The notes below the pieces were generated by a model. It was given only the letters and a program-made list of their open reading frames with translations. It ran no database searches and had not been told where the DNA came from. The translations under genes were made by a program, and so were the position numbers. Of a stretch of 61,736 nucleotides of DNA, positions 515-17,942 are shown piece by piece. Source of the DNA: Jacunavirus JC01 (taxonomy: Duplodnaviria; Heunggongvirae; Uroviricota; Caudoviricetes; Casjensviridae). The stretch is from IMG/VR virus record IMGVR_UViG_2974716774_000001, positions 1 to 61,736 of that record. One strand, 5' to 3'. Positions within the stretch are counted from its first letter, which is position 1, and each line of letters begins with the position of its first letter.

Positions 515-548
515 AATTGGATGTGACGCGCGGATCCGCAATGCACTT

Positions 549-3182
549 TTACGCCCACGTATCGGCGACCTCCTTCGCGGCGCAAGACGCGATTTGTTCT
601 TCCAGGTGGAGTTTCATGGCGTCGTAGTCGATGGTGTCTTTGTCCTTCATCCACTTTTCAGGGTGGCGCATCCATACTGATCCACGAACCCCGTTGACGC
701 GCAGCTGAATACGCTTAACCGGCCCTTTCGAGTACCCCAGCGCTGACAGTCGTGATGCCACTCTGCTGTCACTAGGACGTATGTCACGGGGCACGCTGCG
801 CAGTAACAGTCCTGTGTGTATTAGCTCGTCCGTGACGCCCGCCACATCGTCAGACGCAATGGCGTCTTCCACGAAGTTCGTGAAGTCGTCCTGGGCGTTA
901 TCGATCATGTCGCTGGTGGCTTCAGTGAGCGGAGCAATACCGGAAGAGTGGTCGAAGTCCTCGCTGTATTCCCAGTCACGGAACCACAGCCGCAGCTCGC
1001 CAGCGCACGCCTTGAATGCCTTCTCGAAGTCTTTGAAGAAGCCGGGCTTGTCCTTCAGGAAAGCCATCGCGTCTTCCTTACTGCGAAAGCGAGACCGGAC
1101 TATCAGGAAACGACGGTCGCCATTGCTAATCGGCAGCGCGGCGATGTCGTTGGTGTACATCATCCAGCTGGCCGTGTTCACTTCGTCCTGACCTTCGCGG
1201 TTCTTCCTCTCGATGAAAAGCTGCTCGTTAGTGATAGGCTCCTTCAGGGAGTTAATGACGTCATAGCGGTGGCCCGCAACGCTGATTTCCTCGATGACCT
1301 TCAGCATCGACCCGGCCTGCCATCCCGTGAATGGCCGGTGGATAACCTGGTTGTTGACGGTGCCGACGTTTTCGCGGCCCAGCAGGTACGACATGAATTT
1401 CTTGATAATCGTCTTGCCGGAACCCTGGCCGCCGAGAATGACCAGCGAGTACGTCATGCGTTTGTTCGGGTTATTGATAACCCATGCCAGCCAGTCCATC
1501 GCGTGCCGGTACTCTTCCGGGTCGACGAACTGCGTGCGGAAAAAGTCCTGCACAATCTCAACGGCTTTAAGGCCTTTCTTAGAGATTTTCTCCGGCACTC
1601 CCGGCATCGTTTTCGGGTCAAACGTGTTCAGCCAGAGTTTTCCCTGCCACCGGAAAAAGTCTTCGCTTGGCACGCCGACCTCAGGCTTCCATGACGAACC
1701 TGGCATCCGGCCGTGCATGTCCGGGTAGTACATCATGCCGTGGATAATCGGCACCGGCCGCAAAGCGGTGGCGAATTGCTCAGGACTGCAGCCCATAAAT
1801 GCGGTATGCTGCGCCAGCGAGTTATTGAACGCGTGCGGCACCAGCGCAACTTTCGTCTCGCGGTTGATGAAGAGGTTATCTTTCTCGGCGTACACCCACG
1901 GCTCTATCCAGGCTGGCGCATCAAACTGCTTGTGGTCGACAGACAGTGCGTTGCGTTTGGTGGAAGCAGGGATTTTCTTGCCGGTAATACGTTTGTAGTT
2001 ATCACAGGCCAGCTCTACTGCGTGATCGCGAATGGTTCCCCAGACCGGTGTTTCGCGAAGTCGCTCAGCTGCGCGATCCCATTCGTACAGGTCTTCTGCC
2101 TGTTCGAACATCGGGATAACCCGCAGTAAGATGTCCTTTTCCATACGGGCATCCTCCACTTTCTTCACCAGACTTCTGACGGTGAAGGTGGCACCGCCGG
2201 TGCGGCGGAAATTCCCGTTATCCCATTTGTCGTTAAACGCGGCCTCGTCGTAGTTCGACGCGCGCGCTGACCACTCCTGCGCCAGCTCGCGAAACTCATC
2301 CTGCTCGCGCTCAGCGTCTTTGATGGCTGCGATGACCGGGAACCAGGCAGAATAGTCTTCCGCTGGTGGCAGGTCTTCCAGCAGGGCAGCAAACTCGGCG
2401 TACGTGCCGTCCCATTTATCTTTCGCGTCGTCTGCGTCTACCCAGTCGTCCTCGTCCACTTCGCCCAGGGCATCGGAGCGGTCTTCCGGCGCGCCGCCGA
2501 CGATTTTCCCGCGCTGCGGTGGCTCGTACAGCTTGTCGCCAGGCTGGATTTTTTCCCATCCCTGCTCCATCGCATAGCGGTCAAACTCATCCACGATGCG
2601 GCGCGCGTCGGCAAGGCTCAGCACTTCGAGATCCATGTCAGCGTGCATCGTCAGCGGCGTGTCTTTGCTGACCCACTGATACGGCTTCTGGGTGCCCGGG
2701 TGGATACCGAAGGCGACGAACTGCTGGCCAGCACCGAGGATTTCCACGGCGTTCTTCTCGCCGAAGTCATCGACCCAGCTGTGCGACTTCACTTTCGTGA
2801 ACGGTTCGTCAGCGCAGTAGACGAGCAGCGTTTTTGGCGCCCGGCCCACGCGAGCGGGTGCAAACCCCACGTTGGCTTCGATGAAATCGCGCATATGCTT
2901 CGCCGCGTCGACGTCCATGCAGTCAATATCGACCGCTGGCGTGAACCAGGTGCGGATGCCGATGCCGTAGCGGAAATATTTCTTCTGCCATTCCTCCAGC
3001 GCGTCTTCGTTAACTGCAACCGACTCCCAGTTTTTCATGAGCGGCGCTTTACCGGCCGCCTTGAAAGGCACCAGCTCACCGGTCTTTTTGTCGCGGATCT
3101 TCGCGTCAAGAGGGGAGATTGGAATAAAGGCATAGCCGTTTTCTAGCAACGTCCTGCCGTATTGCTGGAGATATCTTTTCAT
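549..3182 (-). CDS. DNA primase/helicase (P-loop NTPase, D5-like)
   Basis: 877-aa ORF; Walker A-like LVILGGQGSGKT; long N-terminal region preceding the NTPase domain; sits beside the polymerase module. Confidence 0.65.
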   Translation of the reverse strand: MKRYLQQYGRTLLENGYAFIPISPLDAKIRDKKTGELVPFKAAGKAPLMKNWESVAVNEDALEEWQKKYFRYGIGIRTWFTPAVDIDCMDVDAAKHMRDFIEANVGFAPARVGRAPKTLLVYCADEPFTKVKSHSWVDDFGEKNAVEILGAGQQFVAFGIHPGTQKPYQWVSKDTPLTMHADMDLEVLSLADARRIVDEFDRYAMEQGWEKIQPGDKLYEPPQRGKIVGGAPEDRSDALGEVDEDDWVDADDAKDKWDGTYAEFAALLEDLPPAEDYSAWFPVIAAIKDAEREQDEFRELAQEWSARASNYDEAAFNDKWDNGNFRRTGGATFTVRSLVKKVEDARMEKDILLRVIPMFEQAEDLYEWDRAAERLRETPVWGTIRDHAVELACDNYKRITGKKIPASTKRNALSVDHKQFDAPAWIEPWVYAEKDNLFINRETKVALVPHAFNNSLAQHTAFMGCSPEQFATALRPVPIIHGMMYYPDMHGRMPGSSWKPEVGVPSEDFFRWQGKLWLNTFDPKTMPGVPEKISKKGLKAVEIVQDFFRTQFVDPEEYRHAMDWLAWVINNPNKRMTYSLVILGGQGSGKTIIKKFMSYLLGRENVGTVNNQVIHRPFTGWQAGSMLKVIEEISVAGHRYDVINSLKEPITNEQLFIERKNREGQDEVNTASWMMYTNDIAALPISNGDRRFLIVRSRFRSKEDAMAFLKDKPGFFKDFEKAFKACAGELRLWFRDWEYSEDFDHSSGIAPLTEATSDMIDNAQDDFTNFVEDAIASDDVAGVTDELIHTGLLLRSVPRDIRPSDSRVASRLSALGYSKGPVKRIQLRVNGVRGSVWMRHPEKWMKDKDTIDYDAMKLHLEEQIASCAAKEVADTWA

Positions 3183-3460
3183 TCAAGCACCTCGCCTTCA
3201 GCATCAAACCGCATGGCTTCCGGCGCCATTAACCAGGTCGCCTTCACTCCCGAACCGCTGGCCGCCGAGGCGAGCGCGGTGGCAACACGGTATGACATGC
3301 GTCCGGCTTCCTGTGCTTTCAGTGCTGTGTGGTAATTCACATCGGCGAGGCGGGATAGTTGCTGCATTGACCCGTCCCGGTGGGCGTAGGCAGACATAAT
3401 CATGCACAGGTACTTCAGTCGCATGTATTTGTCTTTGCGTGCCCAGTCTGGAAAGCGCAT
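3179..3460 (-). CDS. Hypothetical protein, first gene of leftward operon (possible HTH)
   Basis: 93-aa ORF overlapping primase start by 4 nt; segment SMQQLSRLADVNYHTALKAQ looks helix-turn-helix-like. Confidence 0.45.
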   Translation of the reverse strand: MRFPDWARKDKYMRLKYLCMIMSAYAHRDGSMQQLSRLADVNYHTALKAQEAGRMSYRVATALASAASGSGVKATWLMAPEAMRFDAEGEVLE

Positions 3461-3511
3461 AGTGTGTTCCTCAAAAATAAAACCCCACGCACAGGCGCGC
3501 GAGATTTGCAG

Positions 3512-3541
3512 ATACTAGGCCGCCTGACCGGCTCCCGTCAA
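3512..3541 (-). promoter_or_regulatory. Putative sigma70-type promoter for the leftward primase operon
   Basis: On the minus strand TTGACG, 18-nt spacer, TAGTAT, about 45 nt upstream of the 3460 start. Confidence 0.3.
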
Positions 3542-3627
3542 CGCAAATCTTATGGTACCGCCGTAATAAATTTGCATCCGGAAAGTAAGTTTTGATTTCT
3601 GTCACGTAAAAAATTTTAAAATACCGC

Positions 3628-3656
3628 TTGACGCTGGCCCGCCCCACGAATTACAT
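3628..3656 (+). promoter_or_regulatory. Putative sigma70-type promoter for the rightward replication operon
   Basis: TTGACG (3628-3633), 17-nt spacer, TTACAT (3651-3656), upstream of the 3704 start. Confidence 0.35.
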
Positions 3657-3703
3657 TTAGCTCGTCAAAACGACAAACCTACTAACCAATAACGGAGTGA
3701 GAT

Positions 3704-4081
3704 ATGTCTGGTTCTATTGAGCTGTTGATTGAAGCCCTGAATAACTGCACCGCTGCCCTGCAGGCCCACACCGCTGCAAACGGCAACGCCGCTGGCGCCG
3801 CAGCTGATAAATCTGCTTCTGGTGCTAAGAAAAACAACGCCAAACCGGCTAAACCGGAAACCCCGAAAGCAACGAAAACCAAGCAGGAAACCACTGAAGC
3901 GATCGTTGCGCTGAAAGACACCGTTGGCAAAGACGCTGCGGTCGCTCTTCTGAAGAAACACGGCTTTGCTAAGCTCGCGGACATCGCCGAAGATAAATTC
4001 GACGTGCTGTTCGAAGAAGCTACCGCACAGCTGGAAGCGCATAATGCCGCAGGCGACACTCCTGCTGACGACGACTTCTGA
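3704..4081 (+). CDS. Hypothetical Ala/Lys-rich protein with acidic C-terminal tail
   Basis: 125-aa ORF with RBS GGAG upstream; ends ...TPADDDF, reminiscent of SSB-type acidic tails. Confidence 0.55.
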   Translation: MSGSIELLIEALNNCTAALQAHTAANGNAAGAAADKSASGAKKNNAKPAKPETPKATKTKQETTEAIVALKDTVGKDAAVALLKKHGFAKLADIAEDKFDVLFEEATAQLEAHNAAGDTPADDDF

Positions 4082-4089
4082 TTGACCAG

Positions 4090-4110
4090 GCCCGGGCGAC
4101 CGGGCTTTTT
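4090..4110 (+). terminator. Intrinsic terminator/attenuator
   Basis: Hairpin GCCCGG-GCGA-CCGGGC followed by TTTTT, immediately before the RBS of the next gene. Confidence 0.5.
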
Positions 4111-4120
4111 GGAGTAAACA

Positions 4121-5461
4121 ATGCCCGCCAGATCCTTTCTTCTCCGCCTCATGGATGAATTTGGAAACGGCGGGCATTCTATTTTTGCGCCGTCCGGTTC
4201 GGCGATGTGGCTTTACTGTAGCGGAAGCCTTATCGCGAACCTGCTGGAAGATGACGACGGCTCGTACGAGGCTGCCGAAGGAACGGTGGCGCACGAGCTG
4301 GGAGAGCAGTGGCTGAAGTCTGGCGTTAAGCCCGACCATCGGCTCGGTGAGGTCGTCAGCGTCACGGAAGGCGAAGGCAAGCCGGTTTATGAAGTGCCTA
4401 TCGACGAAGTGATGCTGGACTTCGTTGAAGAGTACGTGCTGTGGTGTGAATGGCTCGAAGGCGACCACTTCGTCGAGCAGCGAGTCTATTTTACCGAGCT
4501 GATGCCGTACGCCAATCAGGATGAGATTGAGGAAGACCCGCTGGCGGTGCCGGTGGATTTCGTACCTCAGGGCGGTACCGCCGACCACGTTTGCTGCATG
4601 ATGGGTCTGATGATTATCACGGACTTCAAATACGGCAAGGGGATCTGGGTCGACGCGGTGGGCAACACCCAGGCGATGCTGTATGCGCTGGGATTCTTTT
4701 ACAAATGGGACTGGAAATACCATTTCGAAAAGATAGTTATCCGCATCGCTCAGCCGCGCCTGCATAACTGGGGCGAGTGGGAAATAACGCGCGACGAGCT
4801 ACTGGATTTTGCCGAGTTCGTCCGCGAGCGCGCTGCGAAGGCGTGGCAGATTAACGCGCCGCGCCGGGTGAGTGCCAAAGGCTGTCAGTGGTGCAAAGCG
4901 AAAGACAGTTGCGTCGCGAACGCCGTGGCGCTGGAAAACCTCGTCTACCGCGATTTTGATTTGCTCGCGGAAGAACTGACGGAGCACCATATGTCGATGA
5001 TGAAAGAGAAGCTGCGCGAAGAGTACAAGATGCACCTCGCCAAAGTGGCCGTGCTGGACGAGGCGGACATGGTGCGCATTCTGGAATTTCGTCGGCCCGT
5101 TGAGCAGTGGTTTAAAGCCATCAACGCAAAACTGGAGGCCGCGGCTAACGCTGGCCACACCATTCCCGGCAAGAAGCTGGTGGATGGAAAATCAAATCGC
5201 GTTTTCCGTAACCAGAAAGCGGCGATTGATCATCTGCTGTTCCTCGGCCTTGAGATGGAGGATATCGTCACCGAAGAGGTTATCTCTCCGGCTCAGGCAG
5301 AGGAAAAGTTAAGGAAGGTGGCAAAGCTGGACAGGAAGAGCATCGACGTTGCGCTTCGCAACTACGTGTTCAAGCCTCCCGGAAAACCCACACTTGTCAA
5401 TGACGACGACCCAAGAGTCGCCCTGGGAGACCACGACGAAGGTGCCTGGGACGATGAGTAA
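4121..5461 (+). CDS. DUF2800-like PD-(D/E)XK nuclease (Cas4/RecB-like fold with C-terminal Cys cluster)
   Basis: 446-aa ORF; N-terminal HSIFAPSGSAMWLYCSGS pattern and C-terminal CQWCKAKDSC cluster; typical partner of DUF2815 and PolA in phage replication modules. Confidence 0.6.
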   Translation: MPARSFLLRLMDEFGNGGHSIFAPSGSAMWLYCSGSLIANLLEDDDGSYEAAEGTVAHELGEQWLKSGVKPDHRLGEVVSVTEGEGKPVYEVPIDEVMLDFVEEYVLWCEWLEGDHFVEQRVYFTELMPYANQDEIEEDPLAVPVDFVPQGGTADHVCCMMGLMIITDFKYGKGIWVDAVGNTQAMLYALGFFYKWDWKYHFEKIVIRIAQPRLHNWGEWEITRDELLDFAEFVRERAAKAWQINAPRRVSAKGCQWCKAKDSCVANAVALENLVYRDFDLLAEELTEHHMSMMKEKLREEYKMHLAKVAVLDEADMVRILEFRRPVEQWFKAINAKLEAAANAGHTIPGKKLVDGKSNRVFRNQKAAIDHLLFLGLEMEDIVTEEVISPAQAEEKLRKVAKLDRKSIDVALRNYVFKPPGKPTLVNDDDPRVALGDHDEGAWDDE

Positions 5462-5503
5462 CTCCGTAACTCCGTAACTCCGTAACTCCGTAACTCCGTA
5501 ACC
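5459..5503. repeat. Octanucleotide microsatellite (TAACTCCG) x5 plus partial unit
   Basis: Five perfect tandem copies of TAACTCCG at 5459-5498 plus TAACC; first unit contains the stop codon of the upstream gene. Confidence 0.9.
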
Positions 5504-5510
5504 CGAAAGG

Positions 5511-6155
5511 ATGGCCAAAATGGCTGAGAAACAAAAACTGGTAGTGGCTAAGCGTATGCAGGGCGGTGTCGTTTACACGAACGGCATGATTCGTCTGGAT
5601 GAAGTTATTCTGAGCTATCCGCACCTCGATGAGATGTGGGCAGGCGAAACCGGCGATAAACCGGCGTACAGTGCTGAGTTCCTTGCGCCGAAAGAGACGC
5701 ATCGGGAAATCATCAAAGAGGCGCTCGATATCTGCCGCAAGCTGGCGTCAGAAAAGAAACTTAACATCGCTGGCGACAAGATGTTCGTGAAAGACGGCGA
5801 TAAGTGGTTCGAGCACAAGCCGGAGTGCGCAGGCCGCTTTAAGTTTACTGCCCGCGAACAGACGCACCCTACCGTTCGTCGTGCGGACGGCAGTAAGATG
5901 CACCCTAAGGATGACAAGGCAGAAATCAAAGAGATGTTCTACGGCGGCTGCATTGTATCCGCTCTTATCAACCCCTGGGTGCAGAACAACTCCTACGGCA
6001 AACGTATCAACGCCAACCTGAAAGCTGTGCGCTTCGTGCGTGACGGTGAGCCGTTTGGTGAAGGTCGTGTCGACGACGATGAGGCATGGGATGATGACGT
6101 AGGCGGCGGTGACGACTGGGATTCCGGCGACGCTGGCAGCGATGATGATTTTTAA
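5511..6155 (+). CDS. DUF2815-like single-stranded DNA-binding protein
   Basis: 214-aa ORF with RBS AAAGGA; acidic C-terminus ...DWDSGDAGSDDDF; conserved position between DUF2800 nuclease and PolA. Confidence 0.55.
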   Translation: MAKMAEKQKLVVAKRMQGGVVYTNGMIRLDEVILSYPHLDEMWAGETGDKPAYSAEFLAPKETHREIIKEALDICRKLASEKKLNIAGDKMFVKDGDKWFEHKPECAGRFKFTAREQTHPTVRRADGSKMHPKDDKAEIKEMFYGGCIVSALINPWVQNNSYGKRINANLKAVRFVRDGEPFGEGRVDDDEAWDDDVGGGDDWDSGDAGSDDDF

Positions 6156-6175
6156 AACCGCTACCGCTTAATGCA

Positions 6176-6199
6176 AGCCTGCCTTCGGGCGGGCTTTTT
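6176..6199 (+). terminator. Intrinsic terminator/attenuator upstream of the polymerase gene
   Basis: 8-bp stem AGCCTGCC / GGCGGGCT (one G-U pair), loop TTCG, followed by TTTTT. Confidence 0.45.
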
Positions 6200-6214
6200 C
6201 ATCTGGAGTTAAAA

Positions 6215-8269
6215 ATGCCTGACCACATTCGCCTTGACTATGAATCCCGTAGCCGAACCGACCTGCCCACTGCAGGCCTGGCCCGGTATGTGCGAGACCC
6301 GACCACGCAGGTGCTGATGGCTTCCTGGGAAGAGAACGATTCAGGGAAAATCGACTTCTGGGATATCCGCCAGGGCCGACGGCCGCCAAAACCGCTGATT
6401 GATGCTATCCGCGATCCGAAAGTTATCAAATGGGCCTTCAACGCGCAGTTTGAGCGCAACATGACCGAGCATGTCCTCGGCATAAAAACCCCGTATTCTT
6501 CCTGGCGCTGTACGATGGTGCTGGCGTACATGCTGGGCTTCTCTGGCGACCTCGCAATGATTGGCAGACTGGTAGGCCTGCCCGAAGAGATGCTGAAGAG
6601 CAAAGAGGGTTCGAAGCTCATCTCGCGTTTCTCAAAGCCGCGTAAACCAACAAAGGCCGACCCACGCGAATGGCACGACTGGACGACGCACCCGGAAGAG
6701 TTTGACAGTTTTGGCGGCTATAACCGACAGGACGTGCGCGCGGAGTCCGCTATCGGCCGTCGGCTCGGCAATACGGAGAAATACCCCATTCTGGAAAGCG
6801 AGTGGGATCTCTATGCGCTAGACCAGTACATCAACGACACCGGAGTCACCGTCAACGCCGAATTTGCGCGCATGGCACTTGAGGTGGCCGAGCGCAGGAA
6901 GCCGATCCTTTTTGAAGAGATGCGCGACATTACCGGCCTCAGTAACCCCAACTCCGTGTCTCAGCTGCTGCCCTGGCTGGGAGAACGCGGCTACCACTTC
7001 AGCGACATGCAGTCGGAAACAGTAAAGCAGGCGCTGCGCGAAGCCGATGAGCTGGGTCTTCCGGAAGAAGTTCGTCGCGTGCTGAAGCTGCGCCAGAACG
7101 TCAGCAAGTCGTCGCTCGGCAAATACAACACGATGCTGAGCACCATGACCGAGGAAGATAACAAATACCGCTACTCGCTGCAGATGTGGGGCGCCAGCCG
7201 CACCGGCCGCTGGGCAGGACGCGGCGTTCAGCTGCACAATTTGCCCCGCACGCCAAAAATGCTGGAAGACGAGTACATGCAGGACGTCGCCATTGAGATG
7301 GTGAAAAAAGGCGACATGGAAGGACTGGAGCTGCTGGTCGGCGAGCCGATGGACGCGCTGGTCGGTCTGATCCGCTCTGCCTTCATCCCCACCCCAGGCT
7401 ACCGTTTTGTGGTATCAGACCTGGCATCCATCGAATCGGTCGTTATCGGCTGGCTGACTGACTGCAAATGGTTCATGGACACGCTGCACGCCGGGCGAGA
7501 CCTGTACCGGGCGTTCGCCGCAGAGTGGCTGAAGATACCGTACGAAGAGACAAAACCGCACCGCAGCAAAGCCAAACCGGCAACCCTCGGCGCGGGCTAT
7601 GGTCTCGGCGGCGGCAAATTCGACCCGATTAAGAAAAAGAAAAACGGCCTGTGGGCATACGGCGAAGGTATGGGCGTATTCATGACCCAGCAGGAAGCGC
7701 ACGCGTCCGTGAATGCGTTCCGCGAGCTTTGCCCTGAAATCGTTTCGTACTGGCGCCAGCTGGAAGATGCAGCCAAGACGTGCATCAAAGAGCGCCGGTC
7801 GGTCAAGTGCGGCAAGGTTACTTTCGAGTTTCGTAAGCCGTTCATGGCCATCGTTCTTCCGTCCGGGCGCCGCCTGTATTACTTCAAGCCTTTCCTGAAA
7901 AAGAAAACCGTCGAGTACACGGACAAACACACCGGCGAGATCAAGACGTTCGAAAGCCAGGAGATTCTCTACTACGGGAAAGACGGCCCGAAATGGGGTC
8001 TCCAGCACACCTACGGCGGCAAGCTGGTGGAAAACATCGTACAGGCTATCGCGCGTGACGTGCTGGCCGGTGGGCTGAAACGCGCGCACGAAGACGGCTT
8101 CGGCATACCGTTCCACGTCCACGATGAAATCATCACGGAAGTGCCGGTCGACGACGAAGAGCGAAATCTCGATCGTCTGCGCCAGCACATGACGGCGCCG
8201 ATACCGTGGGCACCAGGTCTACCCCTCGGCGCAGCTGGGTGGGAAGGCTTCCACTACAGGAAAGACTGA
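6215..8269 (+). CDS. DNA polymerase, family A (Pol I-like)
   Basis: 684-aa ORF; motif A-like VVSDLASIESVV, motif B-like RSKAKPATLGAGYGLGG, motif C-like HVHDEIITEV; RBS GGAG upstream. Confidence 0.85.
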   Translation: MPDHIRLDYESRSRTDLPTAGLARYVRDPTTQVLMASWEENDSGKIDFWDIRQGRRPPKPLIDAIRDPKVIKWAFNAQFERNMTEHVLGIKTPYSSWRCTMVLAYMLGFSGDLAMIGRLVGLPEEMLKSKEGSKLISRFSKPRKPTKADPREWHDWTTHPEEFDSFGGYNRQDVRAESAIGRRLGNTEKYPILESEWDLYALDQYINDTGVTVNAEFARMALEVAERRKPILFEEMRDITGLSNPNSVSQLLPWLGERGYHFSDMQSETVKQALREADELGLPEEVRRVLKLRQNVSKSSLGKYNTMLSTMTEEDNKYRYSLQMWGASRTGRWAGRGVQLHNLPRTPKMLEDEYMQDVAIEMVKKGDMEGLELLVGEPMDALVGLIRSAFIPTPGYRFVVSDLASIESVVIGWLTDCKWFMDTLHAGRDLYRAFAAEWLKIPYEETKPHRSKAKPATLGAGYGLGGGKFDPIKKKKNGLWAYGEGMGVFMTQQEAHASVNAFRELCPEIVSYWRQLEDAAKTCIKERRSVKCGKVTFEFRKPFMAIVLPSGRRLYYFKPFLKKKTVEYTDKHTGEIKTFESQEILYYGKDGPKWGLQHTYGGKLVENIVQAIARDVLAGGLKRAHEDGFGIPFHVHDEIITEVPVDDEERNLDRLRQHMTAPIPWAPGLPLGAAGWEGFHYRKD

Positions 8270-14637: not shown

Positions 14638-15994
14638 AATGGCAACGCAGGCTTTCAAACAGGCGCTGGCCCGTATGCAGCTTCAGCCCATGATGATTGA
14701 GCCGAGCGCAGTTCCGCAAATCGCCGCGTACGCTCAGGCCATGATGGCGGGTGGCGAGCTGCCGGAGGACATGACCGAAGAGCTGCTCAACATGAAGTTT
14801 GACGAGCTGTGCCAGACCTACGGCTACAGCAGCTCAACCCGTGGTAAAAACTTCGCGTTTGCCGACGGCACCGCGATCATTCCGGTGCATGGCTCGCTGA
14901 TTAACCGCTACGGCGGGTATTATTACGGCGACGTCACCGGGTATAACTTCATCCGTCGGCAGCGCGCTGAAGCGATGGCTGACCCGGACGTGGAGCGAAT
15001 TATCTATGACGTTAACAGTAACGGCGGCGAAGCTGCAGGATGCTTTGAACTGTCGGATGAATCGTTTGAAATGCGAGGACAAAAACCGACGCTGGCCGTG
15101 GTCGACTCCAACTGCTATTCGGCGGCGTACGCATTTGCGAGCAGCGCGGATAAAATTTCCGTGACGCCTTCGGGCGGAGCGGGTAGTATCGGCGTCATCT
15201 CGATGCACACGGACATCTCAAAGCTCCTGTCGGATTATGGTGTTAAGATTACACTTATCACCGCCGGGGAGCATAAGGCTGATGGCAACCCGTTTGAGCA
15301 GCTGTCACCGGAAGTGAAGGCGAACATTCAGGCGAGCGTAGACGCAACCCGCGATAAGTTCGTCGCACTGGTGGCGCGAAATCGTGGGATAGACGAGAAG
15401 GCAGTACGTGACACGGAAGCGCGCTGCTTTAACGCCAGTGATGCGCTGGCGCTGAATCTAATTGACGCGGTAGAGACGCCGACACAGGCCATCTCCGCGT
15501 TTATTAACGGGCCATCCGGCTCAACCACTGAGGACGATTCAATGACCAAAGAACAAACCACCAAGCCGGATGGCGCTAATGCGCAGGCACCAGACCCGGC
15601 AAAAATGGAACGCGAACGCATCGCGGGCATTATGAACTGCGAAGCGGCAAAGGGTAAAAGCACTCTCGCTTCTCACCTGGCTTTCAGCACCACGATGAGC
15701 GTGGATGAGGCCAGCGCGATTCTGTCCGCTGCCGCGCCTGAAGCTTCAGCAGCTGCACCGGCAGCGCCAGCTGCACCGGCAGCGCCATCCGCTCCGACTG
15801 CTGCAGCTCCGGGAGCACAGGCAAACGTTCCGGTTGTACCGGCCGCACCGGCTGCACAGACCAACTTCTTCGCTCAGGCCATGAACGCGTCACAGCATCC
15901 GCAAGTCGGCGCGGATGCTCCGGCTGACGGCAAAGGCGAAGAAGTGGACGAGCTGATGGCCAGCTTCACCCTGGCCACTGGCGAAAAGTTTTAA
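14630..15994 (+). CDS. Head maturation protease / scaffold (lambda gpC-like, S49 peptidase family)
   Basis: About 454 aa; ClpP/S49-like core (IIPVHGSLI...YDVNSNGGEA...); Ala/Pro-rich C-terminal region; start overlaps the portal stop. Confidence 0.65.
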   Translation: MSKMATQAFKQALARMQLQPMMIEPSAVPQIAAYAQAMMAGGELPEDMTEELLNMKFDELCQTYGYSSSTRGKNFAFADGTAIIPVHGSLINRYGGYYYGDVTGYNFIRRQRAEAMADPDVERIIYDVNSNGGEAAGCFELSDESFEMRGQKPTLAVVDSNCYSAAYAFASSADKISVTPSGGAGSIGVISMHTDISKLLSDYGVKITLITAGEHKADGNPFEQLSPEVKANIQASVDATRDKFVALVARNRGIDEKAVRDTEARCFNASDALALNLIDAVETPTQAISAFINGPSGSTTEDDSMTKEQTTKPDGANAQAPDPAKMERERIAGIMNCEAAKGKSTLASHLAFSTTMSVDEASAILSAAAPEASAAAPAAPAAPAAPSAPTAAAPGAQANVPVVPAAPAAQTNFFAQAMNASQHPQVGADAPADGKGEEVDELMASFTLATGEKF

Positions 15995-17537: not shown

Positions 17538-17942
17538 ATGCCTCAACGTAAAGTAGTCCAGACTGTAGTCCTGCTCCGCGATGGCGAGCGCATTGTGCCG
17601 CCGGTCGGCAAGCCGTTCAACTTCACCGCGGAAGAGCTGAAGCGTATCGAAGAAGTGAATCCGGACGCAGTGGCGAAGATTGTCGACCCGGGCACCGATG
17701 AAGGTAAACTGGTGACGCTGACCCAAGCTGAGATTGATCAGCAGAAGCAGCAGGCGATCGATGATGCCATTGCTAAATTCAAAAAAGAGCAGGGTATCAA
17801 AGATGATGCTGAAAACACCGATGGCGGCGCTGACAAAAACGCTGCTGGCACCACTGCCAGCAAAACGCAGCAGTCCGGCAAAACGCAGCAGTCCGGCAAA
17901 AACGACAAGTCAGCTGCTGATGCAGCGGGCGATGACATCTAA
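17538..17942 (+). CDS. Hypothetical head-associated protein (position of lambda FI)
   Basis: 134-aa ORF with RBS AGGAGAGAAGG; contains an in-frame 18-bp tandem duplication (KTQQSG KTQQSG). Confidence 0.5.
   Translation: MPQRKVVQTVVLLRDGERIVPPVGKPFNFTAEELKRIEEVNPDAVAKIVDPGTDEGKLVTLTQAEIDQQKQQAIDDAIAKFKKEQGIKDDAENTDGGADKNAAGTTASKTQQSGKTQQSGKNDKSAADAAGDDI

Follow-up and report, generated by a model that had tools for sequence, protein, structure and literature searches.

An octanucleotide-repeat leader of single-stranded DNA-binding protein genes in chi-like phages and its possible role as a phased autogenous operator

Between the genes for a DUF2800 nuclease and a Gp2.5-like single-stranded DNA-binding protein (SSB), the genome of Cronobacter phage JC01 (Jacunavirus JC01) carries a tandem octanucleotide array that, judged by comparison with related genomes, is the local form of a leader element conserved in chi-like phages (Casjensviridae) and not an isolated microsatellite. 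The window analysed here is the whole JC01 genome (IMG/VR record IMGVR_UViG_2974716774_000001; 61,736 nucleotides (nt)), to which all JC01 positions refer. At the level of the transcript, the repeat is a strand-specific mRNA leader, structure-free by prediction, that extends from the stop codon of the nuclease to the SSB ribosome-binding site. By analogy with gene 32 of phage T4, we tentatively read this leader as an autogenous translational operator on which SSB monomers would assemble into a phased lattice. JC01 is a chi-like siphovirus with a chi-type cos end, and the paper describing its genome is silent on the repeat (PMC9759504); the literature on Casjensviridae intergenic repeats yielded no prior description of the element.

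Results

A perfect octamer array adjoins the SSB ribosome-binding site

The array is found on the + strand at 5459–5503 and consists of five copies of TAACTCCG plus a partial unit; read locally, the sequence is gatgag, then the five copies of TAACTCCG, then TAACCCGAAAGGATGGCCAAAATGGCT. The full copies of TAACTCCG occupy 5459–5498 and are followed by TAACCC, whereas Tandem Repeats Finder (TRF) delimits the tract as 5458–5502, with a period of 8, 5.6 copies, 100% matches and a score of 90, the top of 24 rows in the JC01 genome. The sequence-only reading from which this work started had described just such a repeat, beginning at the stop codon of the DUF2800 gene, and both the sequence and TRF agree with that description: the first TAA of the array (5459–5461) is the stop codon of the DUF2800 open reading frame (ORF). 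Searching with a two-unit pattern and up to 2 mismatches returned 4 overlapping matches, all of them at the array, against 0.02 expected from 100 shuffles. As RNA, the JC01 units read UAAC; the unit has 50% GC, and the array has 50% A+U and much more C than G (C 0.35, G 0.14).

The array is also the only one of its kind in the genome. Scanning with a position weight matrix (PWM) built from the relatives, with JC01 left out, gave six consecutive matches from 5459, corresponding to the five core units and a degenerate boundary unit; the JC01 unit TAACTCCG fits this matrix save at position 4, where it has C and not A. With both strands of the 61.7-kb sequence scanned, such a six-match cluster is seen only here, no cluster elsewhere exceeding 2 matches and 200 shuffles reaching at most 3. 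In particular, the whole-genome PWM scan found no inverted copies of the unit cluster on the other strand.

Counted with its boundary unit, the array (5459–5505) directly adjoins the Shine-Dalgarno (SD) sequence at 5506–5511, which precedes an ATG at 5520. The SSB ORF has two possible starts, ATG 5511 (214 residues, the mechanical ORF call) and ATG 5520, and the latter is the likely one because of its SD spacing, the deposited 211-residue annotation and the N-termini of the homologues: ATG 5511 lacks usable SD spacing, AAAGGA lies 8 nt before ATG 5520, and the N-terminus conserved in relatives begins MAE(K/A). With this start the array ends 17 nt before the gene, rather than the 8 nt given by the sequence-only reading. 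The same reading had expected that a change in copy number would shift both the downstream register and the spacing to the ribosome-binding site; the array, however, lies between stop codon and SD, where there is no frame to shift, and the SD-to-ATG gap is 3′ of it and would be unaffected.

The leader is predicted to be unstructured

As RNA, the region 5440–5560 is predicted to be less folded than each of 200 dinucleotide shuffles (200/200; z = +2.91). For the 64-nt window that begins at 5459, the predicted minimum free energy (MFE) is −2.9 kcal/mol; among 30,836 windows covering the whole genome and both strands it is the 28th least structured, despite its 50% G+C. Spacers of the relatives show the same tendency: ranked within their own loci by lack of predicted structure, they have a median percentile of 2.3. 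Rfam covariance models run over 5000–6400 produced only chance-level matches (E at least 0.47), none of which overlaps the array. Pairing of the CUCC of the JC01 unit with the SD sequence, as an anti-SD element, was considered and rejected, since the MFE of the whole leader is just −2.9 kcal/mol and the motif is not kept in relatives.

The element is conserved across chi-like phages

Conservation was assessed in spacer sets from 13 annotated Casjensviridae and 80 IMG/VR loci retrieved by means of an SSB alignment, from which 40 unique spacers between nuclease stop and SSB start (28–100 nt) were taken for quantification. At least two units are present in 34 of the 40, usually 2–10, within a full range of 0–10. 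Spacers with similar units occur in Chi, SLP-22, KPN N137, Stilesk, BUCT551, BcepNazgul, phiAxp-2, MA12 and many IMG/VR contigs, and the SSBs of array-bearing relatives are only 37–65% identical to that of JC01. A DNA-level search of a phage collection turned up no close relative of JC01; the nearest annotated one, Salmonella phage SLP-22 (66.5% DNA identity), has a spacer that reads taaaccgaGTAAacccGTAAgtgtatgacgGTAAatccGTAAatcgagagga..ATG, and those of two IMG/VR relatives are similar. What the sequence-only reading had taken for an uncommon, one-off microsatellite thus becomes, on comparison with related genomes, the JC01 version of a family-wide leader.

Both period and motif are shared. 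Base autocorrelation over the 40 spacers peaks at lag 8 (0.53, against a background of ~0.2) and at lag 16 (0.47), and successive units are mostly 8 nt apart (56 cases), with 20 spacings of 9 nt and four of 7 nt. An iteratively refined PWM of 136 units, JC01 excluded, has the form T.80 A.91 A.92 A.86 [C/T/A] C.87 [C/G/A] [G/A], which corresponds to the consensus T-A-A-A-Y-C-S-R on the coding strand, with the U-A-A-A core reaching 80–92% per position. When the Chi genome was scanned with a model that excluded both Chi and JC01, the leader gave 5 matches in 45 nt and no other site more than 3. On average, the spacers contain A 0.40, U 0.21, C 0.21 and G 0.18. Most relatives' arrays are more A+T-rich than their own genomes.

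Moreover, the units are positioned with respect to the translation signals on either side. Among the 34 spacers, the upstream stop codon is itself the first unit in 20; the last unit starts 17–21 nt 5′ of the ATG in 25; and an SD-like tetramer follows 6–9 nt past the start of the last unit in 23, which places the SD in the slot of the next unit. In 26 of them every reading frame contains a stop, and ATG is depleted in the spacers (11 observed against 31.2 ± 5.3 expected). Three-frame stops as the sole function were rejected, for although most units begin with TAA, TAG or TGA, those of MA12 and Salvo use GAA or CGAA, and 9-nt spacings are common. The leader of Xylella phage Salvo, whose repeats hold the stop-to-SD position (Table 1), suggests by its sequence that the architecture is more strictly kept than the exact motif; the SSB homologue of this phage carries the annotation 'ligase'.

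An exact three-unit match in IMG/VR was found once, in L001 (IMGVR_UViG_3300034357_001399), an unrelated AT-rich contig whose match is judged coincidental, and it was rejected as a homologue. There, (CATAACTCCGTAACTCCGTAACTCCG) x4 lies at ~880–1000 on the − strand, the octamer forming part of a 26-nt super-repeat; downstream of this lie an AT-rich stretch resembling a promoter and a tRNA gene, of which a second copy is found ~730 nt away.

Units are homogenised by lineage and kept among close relatives

Logan cluster look-ups identified JC01-like phages, 86–98% identical to JC01, in six further public sequencing runs from three separate SRA accession blocks. They form a group A (SRR10605997 and SRR33991138/39/44; identity 96.9–98.2%) and a group B (SRR21707704/05; 86–93%), both of which have the TAACTCCG unit at the array position. 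Eight Logan contigs from the six runs (L017, L098–L104) all end after exactly 30 nt of array; at k=31, a break at this point implies that every strain has a period-8 tract 39 nt long or longer, and thus about five or more units kept in all of them. On the practical side, assembly at k=31 is disrupted by the octamer array, which is where all Logan contigs of the JC01-like phages break. A search of 5.8 billion proteins returned no Joint Genome Institute (JGI) protein more than 66% identical to the JC01 SSB.

Variation in these strains is found at the edges of the array, around a perfect core. The 3′ boundary unit is TAACCCG in JC01, TAACTCG in group A and TAGACCG in group B, which has in addition a TAAG at the 5′ edge. 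While the flanks of the close relatives have diverged by up to 14%, the unit is identical; by our own calculation, the probability that 39 neutral sites would remain unchanged at the 14% flank divergence of group B is ~0.003, and the unchanged array in this group points to constraint, continuing homogenisation, or both. Across the family, moreover, units are homogenised lineage by lineage: TAACTCCG in JC01, TAAAACMG in L023, GAAAACCRC/GAAACC in MA12 and TAGACCYG in BcepNazgul. From its sequence the locus looks like the product of slippage or unequal exchange. The suggestion of the sequence-only reading that this is a slippage-prone site is supported on an evolutionary scale by lineage-homogenised units and 0–10 copies; the effect on expression that it also proposed is plausible.

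The repeat period matches the footprint of Gp2.5-type SSBs

The JC01 SSB is 100% identical to the deposited JC01 'DNA binding protein', belongs to PF10991 and matches the structure of Enc34 ORF6 SSB (5ODJ) with E = 8e-51. The contact and stacking residues W150, N154, Y156, R112 and Y30 of Enc34 ORF6 are kept. In the crystal complex of that protein, one monomer binds 8 ordered nucleotides plus a ninth phosphate, making base-specific hydrogen bonds, and a contiguous filament was modelled from neighbouring complexes (PMC5686142). The site size of T7 gp2.5 is 7–8 nt (PMC10359462). Taken together, the 8-nt monomer footprint of Enc34 ORF6 and the 7–8 nt of T7 gp2.5 make the array period equal to one monomer footprint.

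Genes and other features around the array

Features of the JC01 locus and the spacer units of selected relatives are collected in Table 1. The array lies within a replication gene cluster of primase, nuclease, SSB and polymerase genes. A consensus scan of 3000–6500 found a single promoter-like site on the + strand, upstream of the three-gene operon that ends with the SSB gene, and none overlapping or near the array. The nuclease is named exonuclease or DUF2800 by NCBI. Beyond the SSB stop codon, a GC-rich hairpin occurs at the matching site in JC01 and in 13 of the 13 annotated relatives that were folded (L004–L016), with a T-run after most of them; the SSB gene appears either to be the last of a transcription unit that is conserved or to lie ahead of an attenuator that acts on expression of the polymerase.

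Table 1. Coordinates and repeat units at the SSB leader of JC01 and its relatives
Genome	Feature	Position	Strand	Basis or remark
JC01	Sigma-70-like promoter candidate, TTGACG-18-TACATT	3628–3657	+	Consensus match only
JC01	Small ORF, first of a three-gene operon (small ORF, nuclease, SSB)	3704–4081	+	ORF list
JC01	DUF2800 (PD-(D/E)XK/Cas4-like) nuclease, 446 residues	4121–5461	+	ORF list; PF10926 on a 97%-identical Logan homologue
JC01	Core array, five perfect TAACTCCG units	5459–5498	+	Sequence, TRF, PWM scan
JC01	Sixth, degenerate boundary unit, TAACCCG	5499–5505	+	Differs among close relatives
JC01	Shine-Dalgarno sequence, AAAGGA	5506–5511	+	Sequence; 8 nt before ATG 5520; slot of the next 8-nt unit
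JC01	Gp2.5-like/DUF2815 ssDNA-binding protein, 211 residues	5520–6155	+	PF10991; Enc34 ORF6 homology
JC01	Intrinsic-terminator-like GC hairpin and T-run	6175–6201	+	Just 3′ of the SSB stop, before the DNA polymerase gene (6215)
Chi	Spacer units			TAAACCCG TAAAACCG TAGAAAG TAAACCCG TAAAACAG TAAACCGAGGA
BcepNazgul	Spacer units			TAGACCYG, ~6 units; unit ~62% GC
MA12	Spacer units			GAAAACCRC/GAAACC, 7 units
L023	Spacer units			Nine of TAAAWCMG type, mostly TAAAACMG (x8–9); 79-nt gap
Salvo (Xylella phage, L108)	Spacer units	534–601		CGAAnnn, ~7 copies, period 6–8; stop-to-SD position

The C-terminus of the nuclease (5403–5458) is an acidic, aromatic-containing tail ending in ...DDDPRVALGDHDEGAWDDE, which resembles the acidic tail of the SSB (...DDDEAWDDD...DDDF, 6090–6152); a nuclease ending of the form ...WD(D/E)E/D is kept in relatives, and the two tails may share a motif that docks with the polymerase or in the cleft of the SSB. 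Elsewhere in the genome, the non-coding left end near cos (180–480) is densely filled with ACACAC/GTGTGT boxes of either orientation and includes (TAACACAC) x3 at 275–299. No windows of the genome are less structured than those found there, and terminase, integration host factor (IHF) or a regulator may have binding sites in it. Perfect 18-nt tandem duplications of ~2.1–2.3 copies are located at 15750–15787 and 17860–17901 in the structural-gene region, where they would be in-frame six-codon repeats if the region is coding.

Discussion

A candidate operator built as an SSB lattice

We infer that the SSB binds the RNA of its own leader and thereby represses its own translation, a reading that is held tentatively and seems to us quite possible rather than probable. 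Each UAAA-type unit of ~8 nt would hold one SSB monomer; with SSB in excess of ssDNA, the five or six units would become filled and the filament would spread over the SD and AUG, so that SSB translation would be repressed autogenously. An unoccupied leader, being unstructured and free of ATG, would instead allow ribosomes easy access and give a high SSB output, and the number of units, altered by slippage over evolution, would set the threshold of repression. Points that count for such an operator are conservation, periodicity, motif, gene specificity, lack of structure, the fit to the translation signals, the footprint, the T4 precedent and the identical unit kept by close relatives with diverged flanks.

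The precedent is that of gp32, whose operator in T4 is an unstructured region exceeding 40 nt, with several UUAAA/UAAA repeats and with the ribosome-binding site inside it; gp32 coats it and represses its own translation (PMC535899). Of the known systems considered, this operator would be the functionally closest to the chi-like leader, from which it differs in protein family and pseudoknot. As in gene 32 of T4 (and of RB69 and RB49), the chi-like leader lies immediately 5′ of a phage SSB gene and reaches the ribosome-binding site, spans ~40 nt or more, is unstructured by prediction and has repeated UAAA-type elements; the proposed logic, in which SSB in excess over ssDNA would coat its own leader, is likewise the same. 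Unlike gp32, the chi-like SSB is of the Gp2.5/DUF2815 type (PF10991); the chi-like period of 8–9 nt equals a monomer footprint, whereas the T4 elements are 4–5 nt long; and the chi-like array begins at the stop codon of the upstream gene, its proposed function being deduced from sequence. No 5′ pseudoknot is predicted for JC01, and RB49 has likewise been reported to lack one (PMC535899).

Two further systems invite comparison, although neither resembles the leader as closely. Like the proposed operator, TRAP embodies the concept of one subunit per regularly spaced RNA repeat, with avid and specific leader binding, but the chi-like binder would be a linear and putative filament of monomers. TRAP is a preformed 11-mer ring that binds (G/U)AG triplets with 2–3-nt spacers. 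In f1/M13, the ssDNA-binding gene V protein represses translation of gene II through an unstructured leader, a case to which PMC535899 alludes; in that system the mRNA is that of another gene and has no tandem array, and the protein fold and phage type differ.

More loosely still, the leader may represent an undescribed class of operator in which each 8-nt repeat would dock one monomer of a Gp2.5-type SSB whose cooperativity is weak. A pseudoknot and high cooperativity would then be replaced by phasing and avidity, and unit number (0–10) would tune the set-point.

A number of observations weigh against autogenous control. Gp2.5 binding has been described as weakly cooperative (PMC5686142), and T7 gp2.5 prefers GC-rich ssDNA (PMC10359462), while the family motif is A-rich; nothing was found in the literature on RNA binding or autoregulation by an SSB of the Gp2.5/DUF2815 type. 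No significant 5′ nucleation structure is predicted, the 130 nt upstream folding no better than shuffles (z = −0.77), a weak negative with a tool that does not model pseudoknots. The JC01 unit itself has C at position 4, where the consensus has A. Within the family, the array is absent or trivial in JS26 and SNUABM08, whose spacers are 15–20 nt long, and is weak in Enc34, with only ~2 units; outside Casjensviridae, the DUF2815 phages examined (PHS21, Wes44 and Xfas53) have no array. Finally, persistence of the motif could in part reflect common descent and concerted evolution instead of selection on binding sites.

Alternatives to an SSB operator

The strongest competing explanation is a passive one: the array would serve as a translational enhancer or ribosome standby site, selected only for being single-stranded and A-rich, for lacking start codons and for having stops in every frame. 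Efficient loading of 30S subunits (via protein S1), or of ribosomes just off the nuclease gene, would then supply SSB in large stoichiometric amounts, with no specific repressor involved and the 8-nt period a legacy of a duplicated unit. A/U-rich unstructured leaders raise translation in E. coli, and S1-dependent enhancers and standby sites of E. coli and its phages are, like the chi-like leader, unstructured and A-rich stretches just 5′ of the SD. The extremely low predicted structure in JC01 and its relatives, the mean A and U content of the spacers, the depletion of ATG and the frequency of three-frame stops all suit this explanation, as do the high copy number at which SSB is needed and the conserved terminator 3′ of its gene, which suggests a dosage set apart from that of the polymerase. 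What it leaves unexplained is that five of the eight unit positions are 80–92% conserved across genera whose SSBs are ~40% identical, that the 8–9-nt period and the phasing to the SD have lasted, and that the motif cluster is used at no other JC01 gene; enhancers, in contrast, have no such phased and conserved 8-nt motif and are not specific to a gene family. Accounting as it does for composition and lack of structure but not for motif, period or phasing, a passive enhancer is in our view somewhat less likely than an SSB operator but deserves serious weight.

A contingency-type repeat, whose copy number would change frequently in phage populations and so switch or tune SSB expression, is improbable. 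Five perfect 8-bp copies, lineage homogenisation with 0–10 units as a sign of repeated expansion and contraction, and boundary units that differ among close strains around a perfect core would all be expected of it, and the array shares with phase-variable repeats a perfect tandem tract of evolutionarily changing copy number. Yet it is intergenic, running from stop to SD outside any reading frame, promoter element or promoter spacer, it leaves SD-to-ATG spacing unaffected, and its 8-nt units are atypical of such repeats. The 86–98% identical strains from the six runs, moreover, all have an array of at least 39 nt, with no short alleles seen, and ON/OFF switching is hardly to be expected of an essential replication protein.

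A function at the DNA level, whether as an origin-unwinding or primase-initiation zone or as iterons in the sole free spacer of the replication module, is very unlikely. Although the array sits in the replication gene cluster, most relatives' arrays exceed their genomes in A+T and origins typically carry repeats, a period of 8–9 bp cannot hold sites on one face of the duplex, and A+T-richness is not conserved (50% GC in the JC01 unit, ~62% in that of BcepNazgul). The bounds set by stop and SD, the phasing to the SD and the avoidance of ATG and RNA structure are features of a transcript, and inverted copies are absent from the other strand.

Binding of the leader by some other RNA-binding factor, such as host Hfq, a cold-shock protein, Rho or an unidentified phage translational repressor, is least probable: a conserved single-stranded motif with regular spacing and, in JC01, a composition (C 0.35, G 0.14) like that of a Rho utilisation (rut) site would fit it, but Hfq binds (ARN)n triplets, with which an 8-nt period does not agree, GGA motifs for CsrA are absent, the rut-like skew is specific to JC01, a rut site being ruled out at the family level by the composition of the 40 spacers (C 0.21 against G 0.18), and the presence of the element at a single gene in the JC01 and Chi scans excludes a regulon operator.

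Implications

If the leader does act as an SSB operator, autogenous SSB control would extend to the large Gp2.5/DUF2815 family, beyond the paradigm of T4 gp32 and the filamentous phages, and would reach mRNA specificity by a different route, that of a repeat lattice matched to the footprint of the protein. With an operator whose length is easily varied, this small natural system would lend itself to the study of competition between SSB filament and ribosome. In annotating Casjensviridae genomes, the array helps to locate SSB genes and to choose the correct start codon.

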